DNA from: Candidatus Hydrogenedentota bacterium
Lineage (GTDB): Bacteria; Hydrogenedentota; Hydrogenedentia; Hydrogenedentales; GCA-2746185
NCBI GenBank assembly: GCA_046583315.1
Contig: JAYGCN010000317.1
Location: 1 to 53,935, forward strand
Reading direction: 5' to 3'
Length of the DNA: 53,935 nt
How positions within the stretch are numbered: the stretch's first letter is position 1; every line of letters starts with the position of its first letter. A program made the position numbers and the translations under genes. The notes under the pieces are model-generated. The model had not been told where the DNA came from, made no database searches, and worked only from the letters and a program-made list of their open reading frames with translations. Shown piece by piece: positions 1 to 30,118 of the stretch.

Positions 1-1
1 T

Positions 2-57
2 TCAGGTGAGAGTCAGTTCGTAGCGCCTCTTAACACCGCCATTTTTTCCTTCTCACC
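2..57. repeat. tRNA-3'-end-like putative att site, copy A
   Basis: TCAGGTGAGAGTCAGTTCGTAGCGCCTCTTAACACCGCCA (2-41) has a GTTCG T-loop-like motif and ends CCGCCA. It is 30/40 identical, ungapped, to 17488-17527. GGTGAG (5-10) and CTCACC (52-57) form an inverted pair. It lies about 250 bp downstream of the recombinase remnant. Confidence 0.7.
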
Positions 58-304
58 TTGAGTTCCGCTTCACGAACCCACGAATCGCCCCATCCGCCCG
101 GACTGTCGGCACATTCCCAATCGAAGTTTTCTCCGAATCTGCGTCGAGAACAACTGATCTGCAACGATCTTGCCGAGATTCTCTGAAGGGGTAGCGCGAG
201 GTCCGGTTTGGCGGTATCTATGCTCTAGCCTGAATGGAATTAGAGAAGTGCAATGCTGTGTGAGTTTATGGGACGGCAGTGAAAGGCTACGCGGTGCTGC
301 CAGA

Positions 305-677
305 TTAACCTACGAATCCTAGCGCGTTACGCTGAGCGCTCCATGATAATGGGATTCGGGTTTGAATCAGTTTCTTGAGAGCGAGGCTTGCGGGTTGATT
401 TCCATCGAGAATTGACTCAACGATATCTGGTGCAAGATATGCGAGTGGAAGAAGCTTTCGGATGTATCGATCCGTGCATTTTTCTTGTTCGGCGATTTCT
501 TGGACTGACGCGATATCCCCTGAATCCAAACTCTCTCGCCAGCTGTGGGCGCGTGCGATATTTCGAAGGAGAATAGTATCTGGTTCTTTGGATTCAATTA
601 TAGGAGTTCCATCGGATGAAATGAGGGCCAGTTGTCGGGACCATTTGCACAGGGTCGTTTGAATTCGTACAAGTTCG
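305..677 (-). pseudogene. C-terminal remnant of a site-specific (serine) recombinase-associated protein
   Basis: LRNIARAHSWRESLDSGDIASVQEIAEQEKCTDRYIRKLLPLAYLAPDIVESILDGNQP...IPLSWSAQRNALGF matches the C-terminal pattern of genomic-island serine recombinases (ARAHxW...LAPDIVEAILDGxQP...W..QR..LGF). There is no catalytic N-terminus or credible start. Confidence 0.75.
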
Positions 678-884
678 AACCAGATAACCGAGTAACTCCT
701 CGGCGCTACTGGGCATGGATCGGTAACTATAGGTAATTGCCCCGATCTGTACACCGTTAAAACTTGAGTCGGGTTTGGCACTGCCCGCGGCGTAGAGCGA
801 GCGTGGAACCAATACGGATGCCGCGACGCCCACAGCACCGCCTATAAACGAACGTCTTGAAATTGGTACCCCGGGTCCTCGCAT
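678..884 (-). pseudogene. 5' fragment of a Tat-exported sugar phosphate isomerase/epimerase (TIM barrel) family gene
   Basis: RBS AGGAGA, ATG at 884, twin-arginine signal SRRSFIGG, then KPDSSFNGVQIGAITYSYRSMP, typical of this family's N-terminus. Homology stops after GYLV (about 678), where recombinase sequence begins. Confidence 0.65.
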
Positions 885-1160
885 TCGATATCTCCTTTTC
901 TGCAATTCGATCTGGTGGAGTGACGTGTTCGAAACTCAGGTTATGGATTGAGGATGATCTCGCCGACTTGATAATTGCTCTGCATGTGGTCTTTTGGCAG
1001 TCTATCAGATGGCGGATTCCAATTCGAGGCAAGTCCGGGAAAAAGCGTTGTATGGTATGCGCAGGGACATGCTTTTGACGTCACATTGTCTCGGCACGAT
1101 GATGGTGTGCTATTGTAATTGCTTACAATACGGTGGTGAGCTTTATCAAGGAAATCAACT

Positions 1161-2600
1161 ATGTCAATCAGTGAACAGACGGCTTTTTTAGATGCTACAG
1201 GTCAGGCGGAATTGGTACGCAAGGGCGAAGTCAGCGCGGAGGAATTGTTGGACGCTTCGATCGAGGGTGCGGAAAAACTCAATCCGGACCTCAATTTTAT
1301 CGTTACGCGCATGTATGACGAGGCGAAAGCTGCCATCCAGGCGGGGCTGCCAGATGGACCTTTTACGGGTGTGCCTTTCGTCTTGAAAGATCTTGGGCCT
1401 CAGTACGCTGGAGTGCCAACTTCTGCAGGGTCCAAGCTACTCGCGAATGTCGTTCCAGAGGTCGACAGTGCGCTGTGTAAAAAATATAAACAAGCGGGCC
1501 TGGTGATTTTTGCGAAGACGTTGACCCCGGAATTTGGATTCCAACCGACTACCGAACCGGACCTGCATGGACGCTGTAAAAATCCGTGGGATACGACCCG
1601 TATGGCAGGGGGATCGAGTGGCGGATCGGGATGTGCCGTGGCAGCCGGAGTGGTCTCGATGGGACACGGCAACGATGGTGGCGGATCGATACGGATCCCC
1701 GCTTCGTGTTGTGGACTATTCGGGTTGAAACCGACGCGCGCCCGTATTTCACAAGCCCCGATGCAAGGCGACAGTCGTAGTGGTCTTTCCAATGATCACG
1801 CGCTCACACGCAGTGTCCGGGATAGCGCAGCTCTCCTGGATGCGACCGAGGGTGCTGTGCTTGGTGATCCGTATGCCGCACCGCCAAAGGAACGCCCCTT
1901 TTTGGACGAGGTCACGACGGATCCCGGCCGTCTGCGGATTGCATATAACATAACCGCGCCTAACGGCAAACCGATTCATGACGACTGCATTCAGGCAACA
2001 CTCGATACGGTTAAGTTGTGCGAGGAATTGGGCCACGAAGTCGTGGAAGCCACCGCTGATTACGAAGGAATTGAAATGAGCCTTGCCTTTGTGACGATGT
2101 GGGAATGTGGTGCGCGATATGGAATTACTGCGGCCGCTGCACTTCTCGGGCGTGAACCGCGCGAGGATGACGTCGAGCCTTTATCCTGGGCACTGTACGA
2201 ACGCGGCGGGAATATCACGGGTGCACAATACCTGGCAGCGGTGAATCATATTCAAAAGGTCTCGCGCATCATCGCAGGATTTATGCAGGACTACGATGTT
2301 TTGTTGACGCCGACACTGGGCGAGCCGCCGGTACCCTTGGGTACCTTCGATGCAAAACCGGATAATCCAATTTATGGCTATTATCGTGCTGGAAAATTTG
2401 GGCCCTTCACCGCGGTGTACAACATGACGGGACAACCCGCGATGAGTGTTCCACTAAATTGGAACAGCGACGGCCTGCCGATCGGCAGCCACTTTGTCGG
2501 ACGCTTTGGCGATGAAGCCACTTTGTTTCGTTTAGCGGGGCAATTGGAATCAGCTCGACCCTGGGCGAATCGACGACCTCCGATCAATGTTTTGACGTAA
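1161..2600 (+). CDS. Amidase (amidase signature family)
   Basis: GVPFVLKDL, GGSSGGSG and GNDGGGSIRIPASCCG (Lys/cis-Ser/Ser triad motifs); 479 aa. Confidence 0.95.
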   Translation: MSISEQTAFLDATGQAELVRKGEVSAEELLDASIEGAEKLNPDLNFIVTRMYDEAKAAIQAGLPDGPFTGVPFVLKDLGPQYAGVPTSAGSKLLANVVPEVDSALCKKYKQAGLVIFAKTLTPEFGFQPTTEPDLHGRCKNPWDTTRMAGGSSGGSGCAVAAGVVSMGHGNDGGGSIRIPASCCGLFGLKPTRARISQAPMQGDSRSGLSNDHALTRSVRDSAALLDATEGAVLGDPYAAPPKERPFLDEVTTDPGRLRIAYNITAPNGKPIHDDCIQATLDTVKLCEELGHEVVEATADYEGIEMSLAFVTMWECGARYGITAAAALLGREPREDDVEPLSWALYERGGNITGAQYLAAVNHIQKVSRIIAGFMQDYDVLLTPTLGEPPVPLGTFDAKPDNPIYGYYRAGKFGPFTAVYNMTGQPAMSVPLNWNSDGLPIGSHFVGRFGDEATLFRLAGQLESARPWANRRPPINVLT

Positions 2601-2622
2601 AAGCCCGTACCCAGGGTCTTGT

Positions 2623-3432
2623 TTACGGTTTATTGAAAACGGGTTTTCGCTTTTCTTTGAATGCAGCGACACCTTCGTGGAAATTCGGAGTGTCGGTCAA
2701 TGACGGTTGCTTCTTGCGTTCATAGTCGAGCTGTTCGGACAGCGTAGAATGTTCGGCATGAGCAAAGGCTTTGCGGACTTCTCTGTACGTGTCTGTCGGG
2801 CCGTCCCGAAGTTGACTGGCAAGTGCAATCGCTTCCTCCATGAACGTCTCGTCGTCCACGCATTTCCAGATCAATCCCCATTCTTCAGCCTTTTCTGCGG
2901 TCAAGCGATCACCGAGCATCGCGAGACCCATGGCGCGTGCTCGCCCGACCAGATGGGGCAGGTGCCACGTGCTGCCCATGTCCGGTATAATCCCGAGATT
3001 CGGCACGAAGACTTGGATGAATTTAGCCGAGCGCGCCGCGATGACTATGTCTCCGGCCAAGGCAAATCCCATGCCGCCGCCGGCAGCCACGCCGTTCACC
3101 GCGACAACCACCGGCACACGGCAATCGTAAACGTCCTGGACCATCGGATTGAAACCAGTACGCATGCGCTCACCCGTTCGTTCACCTGTAGTCATGCCGT
3201 CGTTGTCAGTATCGGCTGCCGAGCTGCTTGTGAGGTCAGCACCGGAGCAGAATCCACGCCCCGCTCCAGTAATCAGCAGGACTCGTGCCGACGTGTCTTC
3301 GTTCACACATTTCATTGCTGCACGAACGTCTCTGATGAGATCCATGTTGATTGCATTGAGCGCATCAGGGCGATTCAGCGTGAGGGTGGCAATGCCGTCC
3401 GAGTTATCGAGCAGTACCGTTTCGAATTCCAT
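2623..3432 (-). CDS. Enoyl-CoA hydratase/isomerase (crotonase family, PaaG-like)
   Basis: LNRPDALNAI, GRGFCSGADL, AVNGVAAGGG, GIIPDMGSTWHLPHLVGRARAMGLAMLG and the C-terminal EGVAAFKEKRKPVF. Confidence 0.93.
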   Translation of the reverse strand: MEFETVLLDNSDGIATLTLNRPDALNAINMDLIRDVRAAMKCVNEDTSARVLLITGAGRGFCSGADLTSSSAADTDNDGMTTGERTGERMRTGFNPMVQDVYDCRVPVVVAVNGVAAGGGMGFALAGDIVIAARSAKFIQVFVPNLGIIPDMGSTWHLPHLVGRARAMGLAMLGDRLTAEKAEEWGLIWKCVDDETFMEEAIALASQLRDGPTDTYREVRKAFAHAEHSTLSEQLDYERKKQPSLTDTPNFHEGVAAFKEKRKPVFNKP

Positions 3433-3461
3433 TGAGGAGACTCCTGTTGTTGGCTGGTTCG

Positions 3462-4649
3462 CTATTGTAAGACGATCTTGCCGTCTGTAAGTTGTTGCAC
3501 TTCCGAATCACTATACCCGAGTTCGCCAAGAATCTCTGCACTGTGCTCGCCCAGCACCGGTGCGGGAAATTGGATACCGCCGGGTGTGGACTCGAAGTCG
3601 ACGGCTACGCCGATGGTACGTACCCGTCCGATTTTGTCATGGTGGATGACAGGATTCATGTTCATGGCGGTGACTTGCGGGTCATCGAAAAATTCATCGT
3701 AGCTGAGGATGGGGCTGCACGGCACGTTTTCGGCCACGAGTAACTCGATCCATTCGGCCAAGGGACGCTTCGCGAGGCACTTTTCGATTTCGAGTGTGAG
3801 TTCGTCGGCGTTGGCTGAACGTCCGGCGGTGGTTTGATACCGCGGGTCGTCGGCGAGTTCGGGTGCTCCAAGTACGGCACACAGAATCTTCCAGAACTTG
3901 AGCGTTGGGGCGCTGAGATGGATAAGACCGTCTTGTCCCTGAAAAATTTTGTTGGGGAACAAGCCCGTAACGCCTTCGGGTTCGGTATCCGGTATGTCGA
4001 GAAAAGAATGGCTTTGCACGGTCATGACGCCTTGCATAAGCGAGGTCTTGACGTGCTGTCCCTTACCGGTTTGTGTACGACTGAATAACGCAGCATTGAC
4101 GCCCGCCACCACGAGCAGCGCGGTGGAATAGTCGGCGACGGCTACCGAGCAGATACCCACGTTACCGACGTAGGTCTCGTTTCCTTTAGCCGCACCGCTC
4201 ATGGCTTGCAGAATCGGATCATACGCCGGGCGCTGTTGATACGGGCCTTTGTCGCCGTAAGCAGTGACCGAACAGTAGATAATATCCGGTTTCGTTTTGC
4301 GCACCGTCTCGTAGTCAATACGCAATCGTTGCGTAATGCCCACGCGAAAATTTTCGATGATGACATCTGCAGTGGCTACCAGTTTCTCAAAAATTCCTAA
4401 CCCGTCATCGGTTTTTAGGTCGACTGATATGCTGCGTTTGTTCCGGTTCCAAGCCTGAAACATTCTGCCTTCACCGTTGTAAAACGGCCCCCATTGCCGG
4501 GACTGGTCACCGGTATGCGGTTCGACCTTGATCACCTCTGCACCCATATCACCGAGTAAGGTGGCTGCGAAGGCACCCGAAACCGCTGTGGAGCAGTCGA
4601 GTATGCGGATGCCGGAGAGTGGCCCTTGAGCTGATTGATTCTCATTCAT
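3462..4649 (-). CDS. Family III CoA transferase (CaiB/BaiF)
   Basis: GPLSGIRILD, LGDMGAEVIKVE, NRNKRSI, ENFRVG, catalytic Asp in VADYSTA, APVLGEHS. Start moved to ATG 4649, since the longer ORF overlaps the upstream gene. Confidence 0.93.
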   Translation of the reverse strand: MNENQSAQGPLSGIRILDCSTAVSGAFAATLLGDMGAEVIKVEPHTGDQSRQWGPFYNGEGRMFQAWNRNKRSISVDLKTDDGLGIFEKLVATADVIIENFRVGITQRLRIDYETVRKTKPDIIYCSVTAYGDKGPYQQRPAYDPILQAMSGAAKGNETYVGNVGICSVAVADYSTALLVVAGVNAALFSRTQTGKGQHVKTSLMQGVMTVQSHSFLDIPDTEPEGVTGLFPNKIFQGQDGLIHLSAPTLKFWKILCAVLGAPELADDPRYQTTAGRSANADELTLEIEKCLAKRPLAEWIELLVAENVPCSPILSYDEFFDDPQVTAMNMNPVIHHDKIGRVRTIGVAVDFESTPGGIQFPAPVLGEHSAEILGELGYSDSEVQQLTDGKIVLQ

Positions 4650-4668
4650 AGTGTGATTTTCCGAACGG

Positions 4669-5517
4669 TTAATCCTGTGGGATGACAATGCGGTAGAGGA
4701 CTTGCCCTCGAGCAACGGTCCGATTGGTGGACGCTGTTGCGACTTCGACTTGGGTCCAGAAAATTTCGCGGTCCCGTTGTTCTATGCGCCCGTATGCGAC
4801 GAGTTCTTCACCTTCTACCCAGTCGACCATTTGCGCGTGTACGCCGACGGTAGAGGCTTTGAACTTTCCCGGGCCTGTTTCTGCCCAGGCCGCCATGGCA
4901 CCTGTGGTATCGAGATGGGCGAGAATGGCGCCCTCATGGACACCGCCAGCGGCATCGGCATTGATGTCGATAAAGGGCATGTTGATACGCGATGTACCGC
5001 CAGCCATGTGCTGCACATCCAGACCGAGTCTACCGATGAAGGGGACGCGTCCTGGAAGAGCTGGGCCCATTGCGCCAGGGTCGGACTCACCGTGGTCACC
5101 CGCGAAAATTACGGGCTCCGATCCAGTGTCGCCGAATCGCCCACGGACGGTACAGAGACCGCGGGATACTGGCTTGCCGGATTCGGTATGCACGTTTACT
5201 TCGAGAAAACAGATTTCCTTGCCTCGGCGAAGTAATTTGGTGTCGGCTATGATGGGCTCTCCAATGGCGGCGGCCAGATAGGTTATTTGAATGGATGCGG
5301 TGTGGATACGTTTTGCCTCTTCGCCGAGTGAAACTTCGGAGACGGCCAGGCTGCCGATATCAATCATTGAAGCTGCGACGCCGCCATGCAGGGCATCACC
5401 CGGGTTAGCATTTTCTGCCTTAAACGGAAGCCGCATGCGTGCACTCTCACCATCCAGAGAATCTATCTCCACGCCCAGACGTTGTGCATAGGGAGAATTG
5501 TCGAGAAATGTTTTCAT
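4669..5517 (-). CDS. Tandem (double) hot-dog fold PaaI-like thioesterase
   Basis: Two PaaI-like repeats: NPGDALHGGVAASMID and DAAGGVHEGAILAHLD. Confidence 0.85.
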   Translation of the reverse strand: MKTFLDNSPYAQRLGVEIDSLDGESARMRLPFKAENANPGDALHGGVAASMIDIGSLAVSEVSLGEEAKRIHTASIQITYLAAAIGEPIIADTKLLRRGKEICFLEVNVHTESGKPVSRGLCTVRGRFGDTGSEPVIFAGDHGESDPGAMGPALPGRVPFIGRLGLDVQHMAGGTSRINMPFIDINADAAGGVHEGAILAHLDTTGAMAAWAETGPGKFKASTVGVHAQMVDWVEGEELVAYGRIEQRDREIFWTQVEVATASTNRTVARGQVLYRIVIPQD

Positions 5518-5564
5518 AAATGTGTAATCCTTTTGATTGAGAATTCCGGATCGATTTGTCGGTC

Positions 5565-6671
5565 TTAACTGAGTTCAGGCAATAGACAGGAATGAACGCT
5601 GGCATCGCCGTCTATCTCGCCAGCCAAAGTCTGTATCGCCAGTTCGGCTTGTTCCAGCGGGAAATCGTGGGTGTGCATCGCCTCCAGCGGAACCTTGCCA
5701 GATTCGATCAGTCGAATCGCGGATTTGTAACCTTTTGAAGTCACACCGATCGCACCGAAGATCGTTATTTCCTTGCCCACGATGATGTCGCTGTTGAAAT
5801 TCGGGACGTCTTTTTGTCCTTTGACACCGGCGAGAACGATACGCCCGCCAAGGGCCACATAGTGCAACGATTCCGCGACGGGTTCAGTGGAATTGGCCGT
5901 TACTTCGACGACCACATCCGCACCGCGACCATTGGTCAGCTCTTTCACACGCCGCCGCGCATTTTCTTCATCGACGACGATCGTATAATTCGCTCCATAC
6001 TTTTTTGCGAGTTCCAGTTTCGGTGCATCGCTCGCCAAGCCGGTCACGATTATCGTGTCCGCACCTGCTGCTTTACACGCGATAACGCTCGCGAGACCAC
6101 GCTGGCCCGGACCCAAAATCAACACCGTATCACCGGGACCGGTCTGTGGGATTTCCACCGCCCAGCGAAATCCCGCTCCCAGTGGGTTGAACATTACAGC
6201 GATATTGGCGGGAAGGTCTTTGCTTATTTTGTGAACAATGGAATGAGGGTCAAGGTGCATGTAATCCGCGTAGGCACCCCAAAGGCCCGAGCCGGTCGTA
6301 ATGGGCACGTAGGAATATCCGAACAGTCGATTGCCTCGGCCGCGACACAGATTGTATCTGCCGCCGACACACGTGGGACAGAATCCGCACGGAATCATGG
6401 TTTCGACCGCCACACGATCACCGACATCGACGCCCCAGCGTTGTGCGGCCTTGTCGCCAATCTTTTCGATGATACCCAAGGGTTCATGGCCGGGAATCAG
6501 CGGCCAGGGAACCTTCAGTACGCCGTTGTATTGTTCGGCATCGCTACCGCAAATTCCGCACGCTTCCACGCGAAGAATGGCTGACTCGTCGTCGATATCG
6601 GGAATGGGCATGTCGCGCATTTCGAGAGCGCGCGGCCCGGTCTGTACGACCGCTCTGGTTTTGTCGGCCAT
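5565..6671 (-). CDS. Zn-dependent alcohol dehydrogenase (MDR family)
   Basis: ACGICGSD, GHE, structural Zn motif CGFCPTC...C and Rossmann GPGQRG. TAATG overlap with the upstream gene. Confidence 0.92.
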   Translation of the reverse strand: MADKTRAVVQTGPRALEMRDMPIPDIDDESAILRVEACGICGSDAEQYNGVLKVPWPLIPGHEPLGIIEKIGDKAAQRWGVDVGDRVAVETMIPCGFCPTCVGGRYNLCRGRGNRLFGYSYVPITTGSGLWGAYADYMHLDPHSIVHKISKDLPANIAVMFNPLGAGFRWAVEIPQTGPGDTVLILGPGQRGLASVIACKAAGADTIIVTGLASDAPKLELAKKYGANYTIVVDEENARRRVKELTNGRGADVVVEVTANSTEPVAESLHYVALGGRIVLAGVKGQKDVPNFNSDIIVGKEITIFGAIGVTSKGYKSAIRLIESGKVPLEAMHTHDFPLEQAELAIQTLAGEIDGDASVHSCLLPELS

Positions 6672-7204
6672 TAGTCTGTCTCCCGTGGTTCTTCAAGGTC
6701 CAGTTGCAACGCAAGAGCAAACTTCGATACACAGTTCCAGTTGCCAATACAGAACGTTATCTCAACCATTTCCCGGTCAGAGAAATGCTCGCGCAACGCA
6801 TTGAACAGGGTATCGTCTACCGGTTGATCGCGCGTGACATGCTCAGTGTAGCGTAACATCAAGCGTTCGCATTCATTGAACGCGTCACTGGTTTCAAATT
6901 CTTCTATATCCGAAATCTGTTGTTCTGGAACATCCAACCGCTTCGAGATTCGGACATGTTCAATGAATCCGTACTCGAATCCCGTTATCTTGAACAATCG
7001 CAACAGTATTAATTCACGAAGATGATGGTTCAATTCAAGTTTGGTGTTGAGCGTCATCATCATCGTCCACCAATCGCGAAGCAATTCAGGGCTGTGTCCG
7101 ATCATCCGAATAGGATTTAGGACCCGCCCCGCCTTTCGGGCGGTATCTTCGTAAGTCGGTTTAGCGATATCGCTGGGCTCGTCTAGGTAGGGTAAGCGTG
7201 CCAT
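6671..7204 (-). CDS. Carboxymuconolactone decarboxylase/AhpD-like family protein
   Basis: MARLPY, HSPELL, LRELILLR, FNECERLML, LREHFSDREMVEIT pattern. No CxxC. Confidence 0.8.
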   Translation of the reverse strand: MARLPYLDEPSDIAKPTYEDTARKAGRVLNPIRMIGHSPELLRDWWTMMMTLNTKLELNHHLRELILLRLFKITGFEYGFIEHVRISKRLDVPEQQISDIEEFETSDAFNECERLMLRYTEHVTRDQPVDDTLFNALREHFSDREMVEITFCIGNWNCVSKFALALQLDLEEPRETD

Positions 7205-7287
7205 GTCATTAATCTCCTGCTGTACGGGCCAAGGTCATTTTCTTTACGCTGCGGCTTCTGAAAATCTCGTGCTAGTTCTTGCGCCGT

Positions 7288-7968
7288 TTATTTCATGAGA
7301 TCGGCCAGATCGGTTTCACTTAGAGCAAGATCGGTGCGCGCCTCGTTTGTACCGAAACCGTTCATCAACACACTCAGAATATCGATCGCCTGCGCCGTGA
7401 GATTGCTCCGATTCTCGTGGAATTTGTTGAGAAAGATGGCCCCGTAAATCAGGTTCGCGAGAGTGTCCAGCATCATGTCGATATCCATGTGTCGGAAATA
7501 GCCTTTCGCGATCAGTTTTTCCATCAGGCTTCGCCAGAGACTGGCATCGGAAGCCCGTTGCGCCAGATAGGTGGGACTTTCGCGATCGCTGAATTTCGCA
7601 CGCTCGTGCATCAATAATTCGATGGCGTGAGGGTTCTCGTGAAAGAACGACATAAAGGCATTTAGCGCACGCGCGAATTGGAGCAATGCGTCATCGCCTT
7701 TAACGTAGGCCGCCATCACCTGTTCGCGCAGCCGATGCACTTCGCGATCCAACGCCGCCAGGAACAGTTTCTCCTTGGATGGGAAATATCGGTAGATTGT
7801 TCCCTTGCTGATATCCAACGTTGACGCAATTCGCTCTACATCCGTATTTGCATAGCCGAAGTTCGCAAATGCTCGTGAGGCGGAGTGCAGGATTTCTTCC
7901 TTGCGACGTGCGATAAGTTGGTCATCGCGCTTTCGACCTCGTGTTTCTATTTTTACCTCAGACGCCAT
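7288..7968 (-). CDS. TetR/AcrR family transcriptional regulator
   Basis: HTH ILHSASRAFANFGYANTDVERIASTLDISKGTIYRYFPSKEKLF; likely start at ATG 7968. Confidence 0.93.
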   Translation of the reverse strand: MASEVKIETRGRKRDDQLIARRKEEILHSASRAFANFGYANTDVERIASTLDISKGTIYRYFPSKEKLFLAALDREVHRLREQVMAAYVKGDDALLQFARALNAFMSFFHENPHAIELLMHERAKFSDRESPTYLAQRASDASLWRSLMEKLIAKGYFRHMDIDMMLDTLANLIYGAIFLNKFHENRSNLTAQAIDILSVLMNGFGTNEARTDLALSETDLADLMK

Positions 7969-8042
7969 AGCCCGGCCCTTTATATTTTGGTGTTCGTCAA
8001 TAATACGGCACTTTTCGGACAAACAGAACGTATTTATTTTTT

Positions 8043-8073
8043 ATTGACGTACGCGTCAGTTATGTTATAACAT
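8043..8073 (+). promoter_or_regulatory. Sigma70-like promoter overlapped by palindromic operator(s)
   Basis: TTGACG (8044-8049), 16-nt spacer, TG-n-TATAAC (8066-8071). Imperfect palindrome ATTGACGTACGCGTCAGT (8043-8060) and perfect palindrome ATGTTATAACAT (8062-8073) lie between divergent tetR and monooxygenase genes. Confidence 0.65.
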
Positions 8074-8119
8074 GCCATTATTCGGGATGTCAATACATGC
8101 CGAACGGGAATCAGTGAAA

Positions 8120-9589: not shown

Positions 9590-9624
9590 ATCATAAGAAC
9601 TTCGAATCTGTTACTGATGTTTCG

Positions 9625-9653
9625 GCCCTGGAATCAGGCTTCGATTCCAGGGC
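9625..9653. terminator. Hairpin between convergent genes (probable bidirectional terminator)
   Basis: GCCCTGGAATC-aggcttc-GATTCCAGGGC, a perfect 11-bp stem. Confidence 0.6.
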
Positions 9654-10578: not shown

Positions 10579-10671
10579 ACGATCTATTAAATGCAAGGCA
10601 CAGTGATGGATTTGCGCTTGGAATTGGAAGATTGTTCGATTATCTGTATTTCGCCGGAATTTGATCATTCA

Positions 10672-12057: not shown

Positions 12058-12065
12058 AATTCCTC

Positions 12066-12923: not shown

Positions 12924-13052
12924 TTCGATTCCTAAGGCGATAGGGGCGCGTATGCAGCCCATTACTCTTTGGGGTACCCGCCCTGAGCATCCGGCGAGAA
13001 TATCATGGAAGACAGTCTGGATCAACGCCGAATTCAACTTTGAATCCGGGCT

Positions 13053-14109
13053 TGAGGGTGTTATTTTTATAGCCGGGCGGGATTCAGTATGATACTAATT
13101 GTAGCTTGTGGCGGAAAGAGCATGAGCGAAGAAAAATAGCAATATAAAATTTTGGAACGATGTAGATTTGGAGGTCGATTCGTGATCTTAATCTCGAATT
13201 TGGCTCGGAGGGCACAACCCTCTTGTCGGTGGTTCTTTGAAAATTGAATGATAATGTAAACGGAACGAAGAACTACGCGGCATCTTGCTCTCGGTAATAA
13301 TCCTTGATGATGCCACCGAGCTGCTCTCGGCATTTGACCTTGCCTTTGAGCGTTGGCGTGAAGTCGATGTCGAGGATATTGTTGCCGATGTCCTTGCCCC
13401 GGTGTGGCCTTCGTGTGTTGTAATATTTTATCCAGACCGAATTGATGTGATGTAGATGATCCATGCTGAAGCAGAAGAAGTTGTTCAAGCATTCGCGTTT
13501 TAGCGTTCCAATGAAAGACTCACAGAAGGCATTTGCCTTGGGTGCTCGCACGAGTGTCTTCACGGTGCTCACGTCTTGGGCTATCCAGAACTGTTTCATC
13601 TCGCCGGGATATTTCCCGTCGCGATCACGGAGCAGGTATTTAATCTCTAAACCTTCGTCCTCCAGCCACATGGAAGCATTTCGGCATTGCTGAACGACCC
13701 AATCCCCGTTTGGATGAAGTGTGGGATACAAATGATAGACTCTTCGGCTACCAAGGTGAATGAACACAAGAACGTAGGCGGTGTAGGTTCCGTGCCAACA
13801 AACAATTTTCTTGGAGAAAAAGTCGCACGCGACAAGCGTGTCCATGTGCGCCTTGATAAAGTTTTTCCATGCGATGGTCGGCCGCCCATTATTGGAGACA
13901 GTGGGTAGACCCAGTTCATCTTGAATCATGATATTACGAACGGTCGTCTCGCCGATGAAGATACCGAGTTTCTTGAGTTCCCCGCAAATGCGGCGGTAGC
14001 TCCAGGTGTCGTTCTCTCCACAAATCCGATGAACGAGCCGTCGGATGGCCTCGGCGATGCGGCTACGCCCGGAGCGCTTGAAGGTTGCCTGTGCCTCGCA
14101 AATAATCAA
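13053..14109 (-). mobile_element. Decayed rve/integrase-core IS element, copy 1 (terminal motif plus 5'-truncated transposase)
   Basis: Terminal motif TGAGGGTGTTATTTTTATAGCCGGGCG at 13053, 220 bp beyond the transposase stop. The same motif and a similar 3' non-coding stretch recur with the remnant at 16965-17422. Confidence 0.75.
13273..14109 (-). pseudogene. rve-type DDE transposase (integrase core domain), probably N-terminally truncated
   Basis: GENDTWSYRRICGELKKLG, DDE motifs ACDFF / RDRDGKY / ESFIGTLKREC, and C-terminal REQLGGIIKDYYRE. It begins abruptly with a TTG and lacks the usual N-terminal region. Confidence 0.85.
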
Positions 14110-14289
14110 TTGAAGTTTTCGCTTTCGTCATGTAGGCTCTTCTGATGTCCAAATTTATCGAAACCTACCTCCGTTGGGTCTCTCAAAGGCTCGATTTAGT
14201 CGCTAATCTTACTGCAGAGAACCTTGCTCTTCACCACCAGCTTGTTGTGGCCAAGCGAAATCAAAAACGACCAAAATTGAGAGCGTAGG

Positions 14290-14384
14290 CGTGGGGTCAA
14301 AATGCTCGGCCTAACATCATTGCCTTCGGAGACGGACCTTATTCATAGGGTTTTTAGACGTAGGCCGAGTTTTTTGACCCTACG
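14290..14384. mobile_element. 95-bp MITE-like element with 24-bp terminal inverted repeats
   Basis: CGTGGGGTCAAAATGCTCGGCCTA (14290-14313) matches the reverse complement of 14361-14384 (CGTAGGGTCAAAAAACTCGGCCTA) at 21/24. No target duplication seen. Confidence 0.7.
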
Positions 14385-14427
14385 CGCACAACACGCCACA
14401 CCCACTCTGCAACCATCCAATCCCTGC

Positions 14428-14456
14428 TTGACAAACCCGACACGATGATCTACGAT
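14428..14456 (+). promoter_or_regulatory. Sigma70 promoter for the VOC gene
   Basis: TTGACA-17 nt-TACGAT, 82 bp upstream of ATG 14539. Confidence 0.6.
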
Positions 14457-14538
14457 TCGGCATGTGTCCCCCATAGCGCTGATCCACATACATCCTCTCA
14501 TAATATCGAAGCGCCGCCACCATAAAGGAACCTTCCAA

Positions 14539-15303
14539 ATGAAAAAACCGACCGCCCGCCTGCTCACACTCCTCACATGCCTCTACGCATCCAACATCAC
14601 CGCCCAAACCTGGGACCACACCCACCTCACCGTTACAGACACAAAAGCCGCATCCGTATGGTACGCAAAACACTTCGGAGGCGAAATCACCAAAAGCGGC
14701 CCCTTCGACGCGGTATGGTTCGGCACGAACCTCGTAAAATTCAAAAGCGGCGAAAACATCCTGCAAAGCACCGGCTCAATCGTCGATCACATCGCCTTCT
14801 CGCTCGAAGATGTAGATGCCAAAGCCACTGCCCTGGCGGAAGACGGTGCAAACGTGCCCGCCGCAAACCGCCGTAAACCGGGCTTCCGATACGCCATAGA
14901 CCCCTGGGGCACGAAAATCGAACTTTTTACCGATGAAGACCTCCTCGGCTTCCACCACGTACTGATCAAATCCACACGGCCCCGGGACACCATCGAATGG
15001 TACGGCGCAACATTCGGCGGTACCCCCGGCAAATACAAAGACACCATCAGCATATACGCGATCCGTTACGGCGACATGTACCTCTTCGTCCAAAAATCAC
15101 TGCGCCCGGTAGCCTCCACCAAAGGCCGATCGATCGATCACCTCGGCTGGCAATTCACAGACTTCGATGCCATCATCAAAAAACTGAAGGAACAAGGCAC
15201 AAAATTCCTCGTAGAACCCACAAAATCCGGAGATCACAGACTCGCTTTTATAGAATCTCCCGGCGGCGCGAAAATCGAAATCGTAGAAACCGTCACCAAA
15301 TAA
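14539..15303 (+). CDS. Secreted tandem VOC (glyoxalase-like) family protein
   Basis: Signal peptide MKKPTARLLTLLTCLYASNITA. Repeated VOC motifs WDHTHL, VDHIAF, DPWGTKIEL, FHHVLI, IDHLGW, SPGGAKIEI. AAGGAA RBS. Confidence 0.85.
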   Translation: MKKPTARLLTLLTCLYASNITAQTWDHTHLTVTDTKAASVWYAKHFGGEITKSGPFDAVWFGTNLVKFKSGENILQSTGSIVDHIAFSLEDVDAKATALAEDGANVPAANRRKPGFRYAIDPWGTKIELFTDEDLLGFHHVLIKSTRPRDTIEWYGATFGGTPGKYKDTISIYAIRYGDMYLFVQKSLRPVASTKGRSIDHLGWQFTDFDAIIKKLKEQGTKFLVEPTKSGDHRLAFIESPGGAKIEIVETVTK

Positions 15304-15304
15304 C

Positions 15305-15476
15305 TGAGGGTGTTATTTTTATAGCCGATGACTTTTGGTCAATGTTGGCAAGCTATTATCGAATTTTGGCCGAACTATCGAGTTGCCGATAACATAGCCG
15401 AATTCGTCTCAAAAATCAATCTATACGCTTGGATCGGCGCGTTTTCGATGTTTGGTTGAGTTTTTTTGACCCTACG
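15305..15476. mobile_element. 172-bp non-coding relic carrying two different IS ends
   Basis: Starts with an exact 23-bp copy of the 13053 end (TGAGGGTGTTATTTTTATAGCCG). Ends with GAGTTTTTTTGACCCTACG, equal to 14367-14384 apart from one extra T. Confidence 0.75.
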
Positions 15477-15669
15477 GGTTCTTGCGCAGAAAAACGGAGC
15501 ACAGGCTCGATTTTCCACTGGACGTGCAGGATAGCGTGTGTTATTCTGATTCACGTCTTGAAGAAGGAAATACGCTAGATCCACGTTCCATCGAGTGGAT
15601 GAAGCTATTGAGAGGTTCCTGGAATATCGTGGGAAGATCCGTGCACTAATCATTCAAGGAGATTGAGAC

Positions 15670-16929
15670 ATGAAACTGAAAACATCGTTCGGCCTGATAA
15701 TCGTGGCGGCGCTTGCTGGCGCTTTTGCCCTGCCTGCCGCGACCGAAGTCACGTTCACGAAGGACGTTCTTCCAATCCTTCAGGAAAACTGCCAAGATTG
15801 CCACCGTCCGAGCGGGCGCAACATGTCTGGCATGATTGCGCCGATGTCGTTCATGACATACCAAGAGGCGCGACCGTGGGCGAAGGCGATCGCGAGGGCG
15901 GTGTCGGAGAAAATCATGCCGCCTTGGAGGGCTTCCGATGCGACGCATGGTGTGTTCAAAAACGAGCGTACACTGACGCAGGATCAAATCGATACGATCG
16001 TCAGTTGGGTCGCGCAACGAGCACCGCGCGGTAATCCGAAGGACGCGCCGGAACCCGTTACCTTTCCAGAAGGCTGGTACATGGGTGAGCCCGATCTAGT
16101 GATTTCCTTTCCCAAACCTTTCTTCGTTCCGGATGATGCGCAAGACCTGTATCACAACGTAAGTTTCAAAATGACAAAAGAGCAGTTGCCTGAAGACGAA
16201 TGGGTCAGGGGTCTTGAGTTCATGCCTGGCAGCGAAGCGGTGCATCATGTGATTGCCTACACGAGGGCCGAAGGCACGGACGACCACCCTGGACGTCGCA
16301 CGCACCTGGGCGGGTTGGCACCCGGAACCGATGACGCGGATTATCCAGAGGGTTACGGGAAGCCTCTCTATGCGGATTCTACGTTTACGTTTGCGATGCA
16401 CTATCACAAAGAAGCCGGTCCTGGTACGGGTCAGTGGGACAACACCTCGGTTGCAGTAAAATTCCACGACCAGCCAGTAACGCATGAGATAACGACTTCG
16501 CCCGTTGCGCACGGCGCGTTCGAGATTCCGCCTAATCACGGGCATTGGAAGGTCGGCGGAGCGCGTACGTTCGATGAGGATATCGACTTGCTCGGCCTAA
16601 TGCCGCACACACATCTGCGAGGAGTTCATGCGAAGTATACGGCGTATTATCCCGATGGAACCTCCGAGCTTCTGCTGGAAGTGCCCCGCTACGACTTCAA
16701 TTGGCAGACATCCTACACGTTTAAAGACATCAAGAAGATTCCGGCCGGAACGCGGGTAGAGTGGGAAATCATCTACGACAACTCGCCTGAGAACGCTGCG
16801 TCAAACGGTTTCAACTCAGACCGTCCGGTAAGTTTCGGACGGCCAACGACCGACGAAATGGACCTCGGTTGGATGACCTATGCACCGTCGGCAGGCAACG
16901 TCGATATGGCGACCGTCGGCGACGATTAA
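15670..16929 (+). CDS. Secreted c-type cytochrome fused to a PHM/DBH-like copper monooxygenase domain
   Basis: Signal peptide, CQDCH heme motif and KIMPPW. AVHHVIA, AMHYH, MPHTHLRG and TTDEM match the CuH/CuM ligand pattern; YDFNWQ motif present. Confidence 0.8.
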   Translation: MKLKTSFGLIIVAALAGAFALPAATEVTFTKDVLPILQENCQDCHRPSGRNMSGMIAPMSFMTYQEARPWAKAIARAVSEKIMPPWRASDATHGVFKNERTLTQDQIDTIVSWVAQRAPRGNPKDAPEPVTFPEGWYMGEPDLVISFPKPFFVPDDAQDLYHNVSFKMTKEQLPEDEWVRGLEFMPGSEAVHHVIAYTRAEGTDDHPGRRTHLGGLAPGTDDADYPEGYGKPLYADSTFTFAMHYHKEAGPGTGQWDNTSVAVKFHDQPVTHEITTSPVAHGAFEIPPNHGHWKVGGARTFDEDIDLLGLMPHTHLRGVHAKYTAYYPDGTSELLLEVPRYDFNWQTSYTFKDIKKIPAGTRVEWEIIYDNSPENAASNGFNSDRPVSFGRPTTDEMDLGWMTYAPSAGNVDMATVGDD

Positions 16930-16964
16930 GCCACGACTGTAGAATCTGAAACAATAGATGAGGG

Positions 16965-17422
16965 TGACGGTGTTACAATTATTGTCGGGCGCTTTTCAGG
17001 TTGACTTTGAGCATATCGTATGGCGAAGGTAACACGATTGGCTACGATTGACAATGGAAATTTCGTGGTAATGACGTAGTCGAATGAAAAATGGAACGAA
17101 TTTAGACAGGAAGGCAAAGTTCTCCTGTTGCTAGTTCTTTGAATTTCGAATGAAGATGCGCGGCTTCGCGGTAGTAATCCCGAATGATGCCACCTAACTG
17201 CTCACGGCATTTCACTTCGCCTTTGAACGTCGGCGTGAAATTGGTATCGAGAACTTTGTTTCCGATGTCTACGCCCGGATACGGCTTTTGGGAGTTGTAG
17301 TAGCGAATCCATGTCGTGTTGATGTGGTGCAGATGGTCGATACTGAAGCAAAAGAAACTGTTCAGGCACTCACGCTTGAGCGTTCCGATGAATGATTCAC
17401 AAAAGGCATTGGCCTTTGGCGC
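16965..17422 (-). mobile_element. Decayed rve-type IS element, copy 2 (transposase 3' fragment plus terminal motif)
   Basis: 17422-17159 translates APKANAFCESFIGTLKRECLNSFFCFSIDHLHHINTTWIRYYNSQKP...REQLGGIIRDYYREAA, a close paralogue of 13273-14109 with the stop lost. The end motif TGACGGTGTTACAATTATTGTCGGGCG is 21/27 identical to 13053-13079. Confidence 0.85.
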
Positions 17423-17444
17423 AAGTATCCGGAATTACGATAAT

Positions 17445-17542
17445 ATTCCCTGATAATTTCCCTGTTAGCAGGGAATTGGTTTTCTGCTCAGGTGAGAATC
17501 AGTTCGATACGTTTCTATCCACCGCCGTTTTTCACGCTCACC
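17445..17542. repeat. tRNA-3'-end-like putative att site, copy B, with TTCCCTG/CAGGGAA arm
   Basis: ATTCCCTGATAATTTCCCTGTTAGCAGGGAATT (two direct and one inverted TTCCCTG), then TCAGGTGAGAATCAGTTCGATACGTTTCTATCCACCGCCG (17488-17527), a T-tract and CTCACC. Confidence 0.75.
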
Positions 17543-17626: not shown

Positions 17627-18859
17627 CTAGAACTGGCTGATATCTCGACCAAAGATGAACGTGCGTATCCAGTCCACAACAACGAGCATCTTGTTCTTCC
17701 AGCTCATCAATTTCGTCAAATAGGCTGAGCGCCAGAATAGCCACGTCCCGAAACCCTTGCCTTGGACGTTTTTCGTATCGACTAATGCCTTGCGCTGTCC
17801 CACGTAGGCCATCATGCCACGGTGCTTGTATTTAAACGGGACGCTTGCAACTCCGTCCAGCGCTTTGTTCAATACTTTCGCAAGGTGAGCACCTTGCTGT
17901 TGTGCGACCTGGGCAGTTGGCGGCAAGGGATTCCCTTCGATTATTGCGCAATCGCCTACGGCGTAGATATTTTCAGAATTCAACACCAGAAATTTTTCAT
18001 CGACGACCAATCGACCGCTGTCTAACGAAAGCCCTGCATTTGCAACCACATTAGTAGGTCCATTGCCCGTGGACCACACCAGAAGACCAAAAGGGATCTC
18101 TTCGTCGTTCTCCAGAATCACAGCGTTTGCTTGAACTTTTTTGACGGCGGCATTCGTCCGAACGCGAATATGCTGGCGCGCGAAGTGACGGGTCGTATAC
18201 GAACTCAGACTGATATCGAAGGCCGAGAGAATATCCTCTTGGGCTTCCAGTAGCGTAATCTTCACATATGGCATCAACTCGGGAAACCATTTGCTCAAAT
18301 CTTGCCGGAGAAAGTCGTTCATTTCTGCGGCGAACTCAACGCCTGTTGGCCCTCCGCCCACTACGACAAAGTGCAGAAGCCAATCAAAGTCCTGCACCGG
18401 GCGACCAGGTTTACTAGCTCGTTCAAAGCATTGGATGATTTGATGCCGAATCTGATGGGCATCCGAGATCTCCTTTAAGAAATTGGCATGTTGCTCTACG
18501 CCTGGGATTCCAAAGGTGTTGCTCTTTGCGCCTACCGCAATAATCAGCGTGTCATATTCAACTTCAAAGGGCGTACGCTTGAATTTGCCTTCACAATATG
18601 CGACCGATTGTTCAGCATCAATACGCACACAAAATCCTTGATGGAATCGTATTCCTTTACGCGCTGTACGGATTGGTTCCATGATGCTGCGAAATTCGAC
18701 CGTACCTACTGTTGTACTCGGTAACAACGGCGTGAACAAGAAGTGATTGCGTGGACTTACGATCGTTACCTGATAGCGATCGACATCAATCTCCTTTATC
18801 AGACTGAAGGCAGCGAAGCCTGTACCGATAATTAGAAGTTTTGAGCGGGGTTCATTCAC
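17627..18859 (-). CDS. ndh: Type II NADH dehydrogenase (NDH-2)
   Basis: IIGTGFAA, PRNHFLFTPLLPSTTVGTVE, VVVGGGPTGVEFAAE, YAVGDCA, PPTAQVAQQQG, WLFWRSAYL. GTG start with GAGG RBS. Confidence 0.92.
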   Translation of the reverse strand: MNEPRSKLLIIGTGFAAFSLIKEIDVDRYQVTIVSPRNHFLFTPLLPSTTVGTVEFRSIMEPIRTARKGIRFHQGFCVRIDAEQSVAYCEGKFKRTPFEVEYDTLIIAVGAKSNTFGIPGVEQHANFLKEISDAHQIRHQIIQCFERASKPGRPVQDFDWLLHFVVVGGGPTGVEFAAEMNDFLRQDLSKWFPELMPYVKITLLEAQEDILSAFDISLSSYTTRHFARQHIRVRTNAAVKKVQANAVILENDEEIPFGLLVWSTGNGPTNVVANAGLSLDSGRLVVDEKFLVLNSENIYAVGDCAIIEGNPLPPTAQVAQQQGAHLAKVLNKALDGVASVPFKYKHRGMMAYVGQRKALVDTKNVQGKGFGTWLFWRSAYLTKLMSWKNKMLVVVDWIRTFIFGRDISQF

Positions 18860-19238
18860 GTTAATCCTCGAAATAATTCTCTAATCAGTATTTCGTCTTG
18901 GCTTTGGGATATCTAAGAGGGTTGTCGAGCGCTCAAGGGTGACGAAAACGTCGAGCAGACCAGAATGAATAGTATGACAGAAAACATTGAAGGAGTGTTA
19001 GTTCGTTACTCGACCGATGTATTTTCAGAGAATCGTAATGAGGGCCCGTGAAGTCCGTAGATACGCCATTCCATTTGAGACGCGCGATCTTCTCCGAATT
19101 TCTGTGGCACAAATATGGCAGGCTTGACCACGATAAAATAAGATAACCTAGGATAGTCCAAAACAAACGAAATACTCTGATCGCCCTATCCAGATTGTCC
19201 CCACGTATCGTCGGATATCCTCGCTTATCACACACCAG

Positions 19239-19293
19239 GGTCTTGAAAATCGGCGCCTTCGGTCTTGCTGTTTAACTCCCTCATGCACCGCCG
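19239..19293 (+). pseudogene. Decayed 3' portion of a tRNA-Ser(UGA)-like gene
   Basis: GGTCTTGAAAATCGGCG resembles the Ser-UGA anticodon arm (loop CTTGAAA). A variable-arm-like stretch, degenerate T-loop TTTAACT, CCCTC, ATGCACC and G-CCG follow in tRNA register. The 5' half is absent and the T stem does not pair. Confidence 0.5.
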
Positions 19294-19456
19294 TTTTTCT
19301 TGGCTCTTTCACACGAATTCCCGGAAGAAAAGAAGCCTCGTCAGGCTATTTCTTCACCAAGAAAGTCCCTGTGTCTTATCTTTGCCACAAAGTAGTATCA
19401 TCGCAACGAATAATTTGCACTGAAAATACTCTATGAGCCTCAAGGATTCCGATAAA

Positions 19457-20905
19457 ATGAAACAACTCTCTGCTTTGTTCCGCCACTATCTGTCTACCCT
19501 CATACTTTTCATCGGCTTGTTGACGGGACTCGTCGCCTACGCCGCGCCGGCTGATGCGCCATGGATCTTCATTGAAGGTTACGCTGGACAACTGAGCGTT
19601 GCACCGGGTGAAGAAGTAACCCTTCACGTCTCAACGAGCGTTACGAAATATGATGTCGAAATTACGCGATTAGGTGCCAAAACCGAGTCGGTGTGGACTC
19701 TGAACGATGCGCCCGGACACGCATACCCTGTACCCGAGAACGCATCGTCGCATGGAGCTCAATGGCCCGAATCATTTCGAGTTACCATTCCCCATGAGTG
19801 GCGTAGCGGTTATTATCAGGTTACGCTCCGCGCGGAGGTTAAAGGCGGAAAATTTGCCGGGCGTGGTCGGCGTACTGCGGAATCGACTTGCTACTTCATC
19901 GTGCGCTCTGCAACTCCTGGGAAGGACACGAACATTCTTCTGCAACTGGCGACGAACACTTACAATGCCTACAACAATTGGGGTGGCTCCAGCCTCTATG
20001 CCTACAATGGCCGAGGGGGTATCCAAGGCAATCGCGTCTCCTTCGACCGTCCACCGATAAGTCAGTTCGGCACGTGGGAACTTCCTTTTGTGCGATGGGC
20101 CGAGCGCAACGGATACACGATTGATTACGCTGCCAACTCGGACCTCGAATTTCGCCCGGAACTTTTACAGCAATACCGGCTCGTGTTAAGTGTGGGACAC
20201 GATGAATATTGGTCTGCGCCGATGCGGGACCATCTGGAAGCATTCATCGCCAAAGGCGGTAACGTCGCATTCTTCAGTGGTAATACCGCATGCTGGCAGG
20301 TGCGCAGTGAGGACGATGGACGTGCATTAATCTGCTGGAAACAGAACTACCACGCGGATCCCGTCTACGCTACAGGCGACCACAGTCTGCTTACGTCACT
20401 GTGGAGTCACCATCTCGTGAAGCGTCCGGAGAACGAGCTCACTGGCGTCGGATTTTTATGGGGCGGCTATCATTTGAGTCACGGACAAGTTATGGACGGC
20501 ACTGGCGCGTACACGGTACATCGTCCAGACCATTGGATCTTTGAAGGCACTGGACTGAAACGAGACGACACGTTTGGAAGCAAGAACACCATCGTCGGTT
20601 ACGAGTGTGATGGTGCGGAGCTCGAATGGCGTGACGGCCTGCCCTATCCAACCTTCCGGGACGGTACACCCGAATCGTTCACCGTACTCGGCACCGCGCC
20701 TACGCGCTGGGCTCCTGACGACAGCGAGTGGTACGAAAGATGGGAAAAGGGGCGCACTGGCGCGGCCACTCTAGGGCTGTATACGAGGCCGGGTGGAGGC
20801 ACGGTCTTTACAGCAGCCACCACTGACTGGGCGCACGGTTTGCGCGGCGGGGATCCGGAAGCAGAACGTATAACGAAGAATATCCTGGACCGCTTGGCGA
20901 AATAA
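19457..20905 (+). CDS. Secreted N,N-dimethylformamidase beta-subunit family (DUF6605-like) protein
   Basis: Signal peptide; IEGYAGQLSVAPGE, TYNAYNNWGGSSLY, VSFDRP, LSVGHDEYWS, GGNVAFFSGN, VGYECD, VFTAATTDW. Confidence 0.85.
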   Translation: MKQLSALFRHYLSTLILFIGLLTGLVAYAAPADAPWIFIEGYAGQLSVAPGEEVTLHVSTSVTKYDVEITRLGAKTESVWTLNDAPGHAYPVPENASSHGAQWPESFRVTIPHEWRSGYYQVTLRAEVKGGKFAGRGRRTAESTCYFIVRSATPGKDTNILLQLATNTYNAYNNWGGSSLYAYNGRGGIQGNRVSFDRPPISQFGTWELPFVRWAERNGYTIDYAANSDLEFRPELLQQYRLVLSVGHDEYWSAPMRDHLEAFIAKGGNVAFFSGNTACWQVRSEDDGRALICWKQNYHADPVYATGDHSLLTSLWSHHLVKRPENELTGVGFLWGGYHLSHGQVMDGTGAYTVHRPDHWIFEGTGLKRDDTFGSKNTIVGYECDGAELEWRDGLPYPTFRDGTPESFTVLGTAPTRWAPDDSEWYERWEKGRTGAATLGLYTRPGGGTVFTAATTDWAHGLRGGDPEAERITKNILDRLAK

Positions 20906-20908
20906 GCC

Positions 20909-20953
20909 ATGCGAGAGAAACTCGGCGGACTTATCACAGGGTACTATCGGGAC
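20909..20953 (+). pseudogene. Tiny C-terminal remnant of the same rve-type transposase family
   Basis: Translates REKLGGLITGYYRD, versus REQLGGIIKDYYRE in copy 1. Begins 3 nt after the upstream stop. Confidence 0.55.
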
Positions 20954-21010
20954 TGGCAGTCTTTAGATACGCAACAAACTGATTCTCACCCGAATACCCT
21001 GCCAATCAGC
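20954..21010. repeat. tRNA-3'-end-like putative att site, copy C (inverted, degenerate)
   Basis: The reverse complement of 20954-20993 is 30/40 identical to copy B and ends GCCA. It is followed by ATACCCTGCCAATCAG, a decayed form of the ATTCCCTGCTAACAG arm. Confidence 0.65.
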
Positions 21011-30071: not shown

Positions 30072-30118
30072 AATAGTGCTCCATGTTAATTCAGTCGATT
30101 CGTGTTAACCCAATAAGT

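Follow-up and report, generated by a model that had tools for sequence, protein, structure and literature searches.

The window analysed here is a whole contig (C125, 53,935 nt) of the 4.65-Mb, 355-contig assembly of a Candidatus Hydrogenedentota bacterium. Its first 21 kb include three copies of a 40-bp motif resembling the 3' half of a transfer RNA (tRNA) gene, referred to below as the mimic, together with a remnant of a large serine recombinase, fragments of insertion sequences (IS) and several metabolic genes (Table 1). We consider it likely that these repeats are distal attachment half-sites (the P half, located at attR) of decayed islands, which a large serine recombinase partnered by a DUF2924 protein inserts at the tRNA 3' ends carrying CCRCCA. 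Sequencing runs containing the window DNA are mostly marine. Throughout the text, G, C and L numbers denote genomes, contigs and loci (G000 is this genome), and X1-X3 denote sequencing runs.

Table 1. Features of the window related to the mimic sites and their surroundings
Feature	Position	Strand	Basis or remark
Copy A, 40-bp mimic half-site	2..41	+	Pairwise comparison, matrix scan
Recombinase-side element end (P')	42..253	+	Elsewhere located directly after intact tRNA 3' ends
C-terminal remnant of DUF2924-partnered large serine recombinase	305..673	-	52% identity over 120 aa to residues 414-533 of the C244 enzyme
Piece of another, unrelated gene, joined to the remnant	679..899	-	78% to a gene on C181; no Pfam family
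IS-type integrase-core gene fragment	17097..17422	-	76% repeat of 13289-13545; replaces the distal arm of copy B
Proximal arm of copy B	17446..17487	+	Two TCCCTG boxes 12 bp apart, the second within palindrome 17458-17475; 11-bp-longer spacer class
Copy B, 40-bp mimic half-site	17488..17527	+	Co-oriented with copy A
Type II NADH dehydrogenase gene (ndh)	17627..18859	-	Pyr_redox_2 and NDH2_C; target side of B
Decayed 3' fragment of tRNA-Ser(TGA)	19239..19293	+	82% over 55 nt
N,N-dimethylformamidase (DMFase) beta-like gene	19433..20905	+	DMFA2_C; target side of C
Copy C, 40-bp mimic half-site	20954..20993	-	Points toward copy B
Degenerate remnant of the copy C arm palindrome	20994..21012	-	

The three ungapped copies listed in the initial annotation of this contig are real: A and B, as well as B and C, are identical at 30 of 40 positions, A and C at 31. 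A matrix iterated from these copies, as the annotation had proposed, was run over the whole genome, with two shuffled genomes and the reversed genome as controls. It found 18 sites scoring 35-65 bits, far above the shuffled background: the next-best match had 15.1 bits, and control maxima were 18.0, 14.4 and 12.0 bits (two shuffled genomes, one reversed). From G000, its relatives and 18 metagenome loci we gathered 50 distinct sites. Their last three positions (CCA) are conserved at 94-100%, while each of the twenty following columns is conserved at no more than 52%. The 3' hexamer is CCGCCA in 24 sites, CCACCA in 20 and a variant in 6. This CCGCCA/CCACCA core, located at 36-41 in copy A, is common to the mimics and intact tRNAs.

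As supposed initially, the motif is 2 nt longer than a tRNA 3' end and cannot fold as one. GTTCG of the mimic is 2 nt farther from CCA than in a tRNA, and the T-stem pairs at 1-3 of 5 positions in every one of the 50 sites, compared to 5 of 5 in 41 out of 45 tRNAs. Folding z averages -0.25 across the sites and falls below -2 in just one of them; the motif is not palindromic and has no attC-like fold. The T-loop-like GTTCG and the CCA end could hint at a structured small RNA or a tRNA-like regulatory element. We find this explanation hardly credible: there is no stable fold, no relevant Rfam match was obtained for window positions 1-25000 (two weak small nucleolar RNA matches only), and the spacing of the upstream sequences described below follows helical turns, as it does for DNA-binding sites.

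The likeness to a tRNA 3' half could also be accounted for by displaced tRNA fragments left by ordinary tyrosine integrase islands. Seven decayed tRNA-Ser(TGA) fragments are present in G000 (C252, C50, C89, C125, C327, C299 and C355); five of the sites have a real Ser(TGA) fragment 0.06-2.4 kb away, and the fragments on C252, C355 and C125 are located 1.7-2.4 kb downstream of a co-oriented mimic. However, true fragments stay 74-98% identical to their tRNA, whereas the 50 mimics share one fixed sequence that lacks a T-stem, exceeds a tRNA 3' end by 2 nt and has no counterpart among the host tRNAs; blastn recovered the piece at 19239 and none of the mimics. This origin of the mimics is thus very improbable. 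The piece at 19239 was described earlier as a decayed tRNA-Ser sharing a CACCGCC core with the mimics. It is indeed a Ser(TGA) fragment, but the extra CA of this core is absent from intact tRNA-Ser. Such fragments more likely come from tyrosine integrase islands: the intact tRNA-Ser(TGA) gene on C128 is followed by the start of what, by its look, we take to be a tyrosine integrase gene.

The conserved sequence extends upstream of the mimic. A TCCCTG palindrome is kept in 30 of the 50 sites; by manual count, it lies 16-18 bp (13 sites), 27-28 bp (16) or 30 bp (1) from the mimic, so the two main classes differ by one helical turn. A TTCCCTG arm had been noticed at both B and C. Copy B does have a true TTCCCTG...CAGGGAA palindrome; that of copy C is only a degenerate remnant. 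Five G000 copies have 150-380 bp of upstream sequence in common, and full element ends carry a conserved arm of about 350 bp in which boxes recur with a 21-bp phase. Fourteen chosen ends were aligned, and the better-preserved among them possess a further box array about 135-230 bp out. The 28 intervals between boxes counted in 10 of these 14 ends (four truncated ends and three outlying boxes were excluded) are mostly 21 bp (18) or 22 bp (7), with single and double occurrences of 20 bp (1) and 42 bp (2).

The serine recombinase remnant reported near copy A is genuine, its stop codon occupying 305-307, 263 bp from the mimic. As an unrelated gene fragment is fused to this remnant, the catalytic part and DUF2924 must have been deleted, and the window retains the C-terminus only. 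The intact counterpart is located on C244, where a DUF2924 gene is followed by a gene coding for a 535-aa protein with Resolvase (PF00239, E 7e-39) and Recombinase (PF07508) domains, aimed at tRNA-Val(TAC) 270 bp away. Its catalytic Ser13 is invariant across 80 aligned homologues. The four-cysteine zinc ribbon gave no Pfam match in the C244 enzyme, and there is no conserved Cys in this place among the 80 homologues. The best fold matches of the recombinase model (pLDDT 81.8, pTM 0.41) are solved serine integrases.

DUF2924 is predicted to bind the recombinase C-terminus. Complex prediction for DUF2924 and recombinase residues 446-525 supports this with a score of 0.65, the best of three controls scoring 0.00; of 157 solved complexes, 116 attain the mark used for this score, as do 2 out of 215 mismatched pairs, and these rates apply only approximately to the alignments used here. 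At least 65% of the predicted contacts were shared between runs, with partner pLDDT of at least 68. Since a Foldseek search of the PDB with DUF2924 was negative at E 0.001, recall of a solved complex is unlikely.

The recombinase family is large, with all 7997 scored candidates passing E 1e-30. Homologues are present in 15 of 61 related genomes, but identity of at least 59% over nearly full length is seen only in G000, G001 and G006. The same three genomes have clear motif copies (15, 2 and 7, respectively, by pattern search); a fourth of the 61 has one chance-like match, and reversed controls have none. As these genomes are not independent, this co-occurrence is a pattern rather than a test. 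Across the class, 4 of 107 genomes match the motif pattern, two of them by single chance-like matches; the single matches in G009 and G104 have no arm and were judged to be chance. Searching 10 further genomes with the arm pattern brought up one real end, in G012; the remaining four places, three of them inspected, are put down to chance. Viral contigs had no motif matches and a single distant recombinase locus, with neither motif nor tRNA, and none of the six recombinase loci from named genomes showed the tRNA-plus-motif layout. More distant recombinases of the order (L034, L035, L038, L041, L048, L050 and G036:C16; 49-65% in the N-terminal part) have the opposite layout, with tRNA-Met, -Val, -Asn or -Ala upstream of them in the same orientation; one of them aims at transfer-messenger RNA (tmRNA).

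The connection between the recombinase and tRNA genes is provided by the recombinase-side element end, P'. Window positions 89-190 align at 70% identity with the stretch separating tRNA-Val from the recombinase gene on C244. P' ends are also found after tRNA-Ser(GGA) on C303, after tRNA-Ser(CGA) in G001 and G010, and after tRNA-Ser(GGA) in G006 and L134. The flank of the latter tRNA gene on G006:C72 matches window 36-152 at 76%, with the match beginning exactly at CCGCCA. The G006 recombinase aims at tRNA-Ala(GGC), where the spacer is partly masked. A P' profile constructed from six ends recovers only those six (seven distinct ones with L134) and one mimic-P' junction, and every match without a mimic follows the CCA of a tRNA. 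P'-type ends therefore occur at Ser(TGA, GGA, CGA), Val(TAC) and Ala(GGC). The proposal that tRNA-Ser is the target holds insofar as Ser ends carry P' ends, but the system is not specific to serine: Val(TAC) and Ala(GGC) are used too, and 20 of the 50 sites end with CCACCA. In G000 there are two versions of tRNA-Val(TAC), C30:172-248 and C244:20-96, with the same upstream bases and a different T-arm and 3' flank. These are probably strain variants with and without another island.

Copy A stands in the place where a tRNA end normally stands, so it is most likely a mimic-P' junction of two stacked elements. L129 and L135 (one sequence) contain another junction of this kind. In run X2, a 53-nt contig of depth 10 joins the tRNA-Ser(TGA) 3' end to window 36-70 with one difference, and no X2 piece covers window 1-35; in run X3, a mimic matching 8-41 runs on into other DNA. 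Both hybrid junctions, tRNA-P' and mimic-flank, share few bases and break at CCRCCA. Taken together, the P' ends, the X2 contig and the homology breaks at the core support the earlier proposal of att junctions belonging to a large serine recombinase system that was used repeatedly. The GGTGAGA/TCTCACC inverted pair around copy A was considered as an att dyad and rejected, as it is not centred on the core.

The general layout is as follows: tRNA end, P' end, recombinase gene pointing back, cargo, long arm, mimic, flank, with homology breaking at CCRCCA. On G006:C181, tRNA-Ala is followed by the recombinase, cargo and then three co-oriented mimics 24, 28 and 34 kb away. Overall, 52 sites are distributed over 39 contigs, 8 of which also have an intact tRNA. 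All 13 site-tRNA pairs on these 8 contigs are co-oriented, with the tRNA upstream in 10 and downstream in 3, and the base preceding CCA equals that of the upstream tRNA at five out of six loci. Six of the 18 G000 sites are within 3 kb of a tRNA or its fragment (6.0% for random positions). The original left neighbour of the right flank is traceable for 9 of the 50 sites, all traced neighbours being paralogous copies and not proven targets. Four of them are tRNA ends: copy A, C347 (its flank matches the tRNA-Ser(CGA) flank in G006 from the core on, 81%), and C142 and L143_1077, both assigned by register matches at 70-73%. Genes downstream of tRNAs in G008 and G010, used to trace the chromosomal flank, had no match beside a mimic, and a plasmid search returned one 33-bp arm match only.

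The sites are also close to IS copies: 9 out of 18 in G000 lie within 2 kb of an IS-end repeat, compared to 1.7% of random positions. This proximity, the existence of inverted pairs (B and C in the window, another one on C234) and the non-tRNA nature of five out of nine traced junctions would suit a transposon, a miniature inverted-repeat transposable element or a repetitive extragenic palindrome-like end moved by an IS transposase, the recombinase remnant being a bystander. We regard this as unlikely. The motif is not palindromic, takes up the exact place of the tRNA end in front of the recombinase-side end and tracks the recombinase clade across genomes, while the junction ends of inverted pairs look inward, so that the enclosed genes are target and not cargo. 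The inward-facing pair on C234 (273-312 and 5797-5836) has outer 272 bp that are 99% identical, and one of its ends interrupts a frame with weak BNR likeness; either an inverted duplication or an artefact of assembly could have produced the pair.

Single genes between the sites, ndh and the DMFase-like gene among them, were initially regarded as cassettes. An integron-like array would mean that the sites border single-gene cassettes moved one by one by the recombinase. There is a unit of this appearance on G006:C40 (L079:8764-9743, the only one seen), where one gene sits between two co-oriented mimics 940 bp apart directly after tRNA-Ser(CGA), and several contigs have two or three co-oriented copies 0.4-6 kb apart. 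Yet an 88%-identical copy of the G006:C40 gene on C280 in G000 has no sites. For the ndh orthologue in G006 (77%), the closest mimic is 4.3 kb off, beyond another gene, and no mimic was found in the stretches fetched around the DMFase orthologues in G006 (77%) and G001 (70%), where homology stops at the stop codons. In addition, the span from A to B is 17.5 kb and holds more than a dozen genes, an attC-like fold is lacking, the units end in a P half mostly without a P' half, and no tyrosine recombinase, IntI included, was found among the 41 open reading frames (ORFs) of the window (the rest of the genome was not searched for IntI). An integron-like array is thus improbable. Neither ndh nor the DMFase-like gene is supported as a cassette, the sites on either side of this pair, B and C, having opposite orientations and inward-directed junction ends.

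As B and C face each other, we assign the stretch between these two different ends, with ndh, the DMFase-like gene and the tRNA-Ser fragment, to their target side. The order B-ndh-DMFase-C is no assembly artefact, because a single X1 contig covers 17448-21150 with 0 differences to the window. A joint reported at 20313-20585 falls inside the DMFase gene, has one side of 23 nt and was disregarded. In outline, 42-17527 is likely to be a decayed 17.5-kb element with metabolic cargo and B as its distal, attR-like end, while copy C comes from an element formerly located to its right. No phage structural genes were found among the 41 window ORFs or the 17 scanned ORFs of the G006:C181 array, which has several further ORFs.

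A number of observations weigh against the reading of the sites as ends of tRNA-targeting islands. Recombination is deduced here from sequence comparison, with no event observed. The contigs of five runs, which show presence only, contain no circular junction, for which the initial annotation had suggested a search, no leftward extension of position 1 and no joint at any site. No dyad centred on the core is visible by eye. The X2 contig is short and comes from a single run, and the adjacent X2 piece diverges after 85; it may represent a sister element rather than an empty allele of the window locus, or a displaced tRNA fragment rather than an intact gene. At L131 the base before CCA does not match the upstream tRNA. 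The left neighbour is untraced for 41 of the 50 sites, and five of the traced junctions (C355, L134_4648, L137, L139 and L143_1712) abut the inside of other repeats without a shared core. Simple tRNA integration does not explain these flush junctions, which may result from rejoining at relaxed sites or from processing of abortive cuts. None of the 18 metagenome loci has a recombinase within the available flank of up to 6 kb; this fits a distal end and gives no support. Finally, no pattern match was obtained in G004 and G010, whose recombinases are more distant, and G012 (87% complete) has an arm with a diverged mimic and no recombinase match at E 1e-20.

Assuming that the sites are ends of such islands, we suggest the following scheme. 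The recombinase would read the mimic in the same way as the stretch from T-arm to CCA of a tRNA gene, i.e., by DNA mimicry without any RNA fold, and strand exchange within the core would leave the tRNA intact. A later element entering the same tRNA end would push the older one outward, producing a mimic-P' junction like copy A. Old elements would lose their recombinase and gather ISs, which would explain why ends outnumber intact enzymes 18 to 1. DUF2924 is predicted to dock on the C-terminal domain of the recombinase, and the complex may bind TCCCTG boxes phased at 21 bp, thereby building the synapse or setting direction. The least certain step is rejoining of leftover ends to non-tRNA DNA, which would account for the flush junctions and the inward-facing B/C pair.

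A bolder version of this scheme can be considered. Recombinase and DUF2924 could form a two-protein machine with a lambda-like phased accessory arm, which reads the generic stretch from T-arm to CCA as DNA and enters any tRNA ending with CCRCCA, while leftover ends stay reactive and rejoin flush to nearby DNA, deleting, inverting and capturing accessory genes. We offer this tentatively and find it rather doubtful as a whole.

Several other features of the window deserve mention. IS-type elements with the rve_3 integrase core occupy 13053-14385, 15305-15495 and 17097-17422. The IS end repeat of about 190 bp has 21 matches on 17 contigs, and in X1 and X3 alike, a copy of it is joined to the interior of the P' end at window 114. 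A glyoxalase-family gene is located between two IS ends at 14380-15305 and is strongly strand-skewed (C 34%, A 30%, G 19%, T 17%), which its neighbours are not. The 28518-45569 region is likely a terpene-use cluster coding for linalool dehydratase/isomerase, AtuA, acyl-CoA carboxylase, dehydrogenases and several family III CoA transferases. The contig ends with about 1 kb of AT-rich gene-free DNA (52867-53935; GC content is 42% from 52001).

Island finders relying on a tRNA gene, its displaced fragment and a tyrosine integrase would miss elements of this kind, and serine integration at tRNA genes is called unknown or rare in the consulted parts of the reference papers. If our reading is true, a serine integrase with a long phased arm and a partner protein extends the picture of short cofactor-free sites, DUF2924 acquires a testable function, and an integration tool aimed at conserved tRNA ends becomes conceivable. 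G000 contains the intact enzyme and its partner as well as the two ends of the element and natural targets.

Among known systems, tyrosine integrase islands have a near-exact tRNA fragment at the far end, while only about 6 bp and GTTCG are common here. Tandem accretion and CIMEs of such islands are treated in PMC4383910 and PMC7563491; elements stack there at the 3' end of a tRNA gene, those farthest out being the most decayed, and this stacking is shared with the islands proposed here. According to the part of PMC3218068 consulted, serine recombinases at tRNA genes are rare, the examples being phiRSM1 (tRNA-Ser) and Mycobacterium AICEs (tRNA-Leu). Compared by description only, these have one target tRNA each, and the phiRSM enzyme is resolvase-like judging by a cited title. 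The multi-targeting clade of large serine recombinases (Durrant et al., PMC10083194) is presented in the consulted text as having several targets per clade, possibly owing to relaxed specificity; it is marked by DUF4368, which was not found here, and the word tRNA is absent from the main text of this survey as consulted. DUF2924 is mentioned only in three Wolbachia papers among the matches listed and is absent from the consulted part of the recombination directionality factor paper (PMC12286644). The parts consulted of PMC11476347, PMC12884075, PMC12424338 and PMC10654092 describe no such family. No account of phased arms or multi-tRNA targeting by this recombinase family came up in the literature searches, although subscription papers or supplements may have one.

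Bxb1, phiC31, A118/LI and TP901-1 integrases have the same Resolvase and Recombinase domains and Ser13, and it is enzymes of this group that the recombinase fold matches best. Unlike them, the recombinase described here has no four-cysteine zinc ribbon and carries an extra C-terminal helical domain, the predicted binder of DUF2924. Sites of large serine integrases are about 40-50 bp long, as stated in the abstract of PMC12286644; instead of such an arm-free site of about 50 bp, we see a conserved end of about 350 bp with phased boxes.

The closest likeness is to the integration module of the Acidithiobacillus phage AcaML1 (JX507079.1). Its recombinase matches ours at 50% over residues 4-357 and at 36% over 445-531, a DUF2924 homologue (36%) is located upstream, and the recombinase gene points at the element end. 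The AcaML1 record begins with CCACCA and ends with a GGTTCG...CCACCA look-alike. Table 2 of PMC3826726 gives a 10-bp direct repeat and names the attB 'srrA', which we take to mean ssrA/tmRNA. Both systems thus have DUF2924 upstream of a homologous recombinase aimed at a tRNA or tmRNA 3' end and a look-alike at the far end. AcaML1, however, is a full phage with the C-terminal domain split into its own gene; its look-alike has the normal tRNA length, and its last 3.4 kb lack a TCCCTG box. In the system described here, there is one fused gene, no phage genes were found, the mimic is fixed and longer by 2 nt, the arm is long and phased, a genome can have 18 ends, and the tRNA targets number at least five. 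Overall, the sites can be considered to represent a tRNA-end island system run by a serine recombinase with an AcaML1-type module, which departs from textbook integrases in site length, partner and target range.

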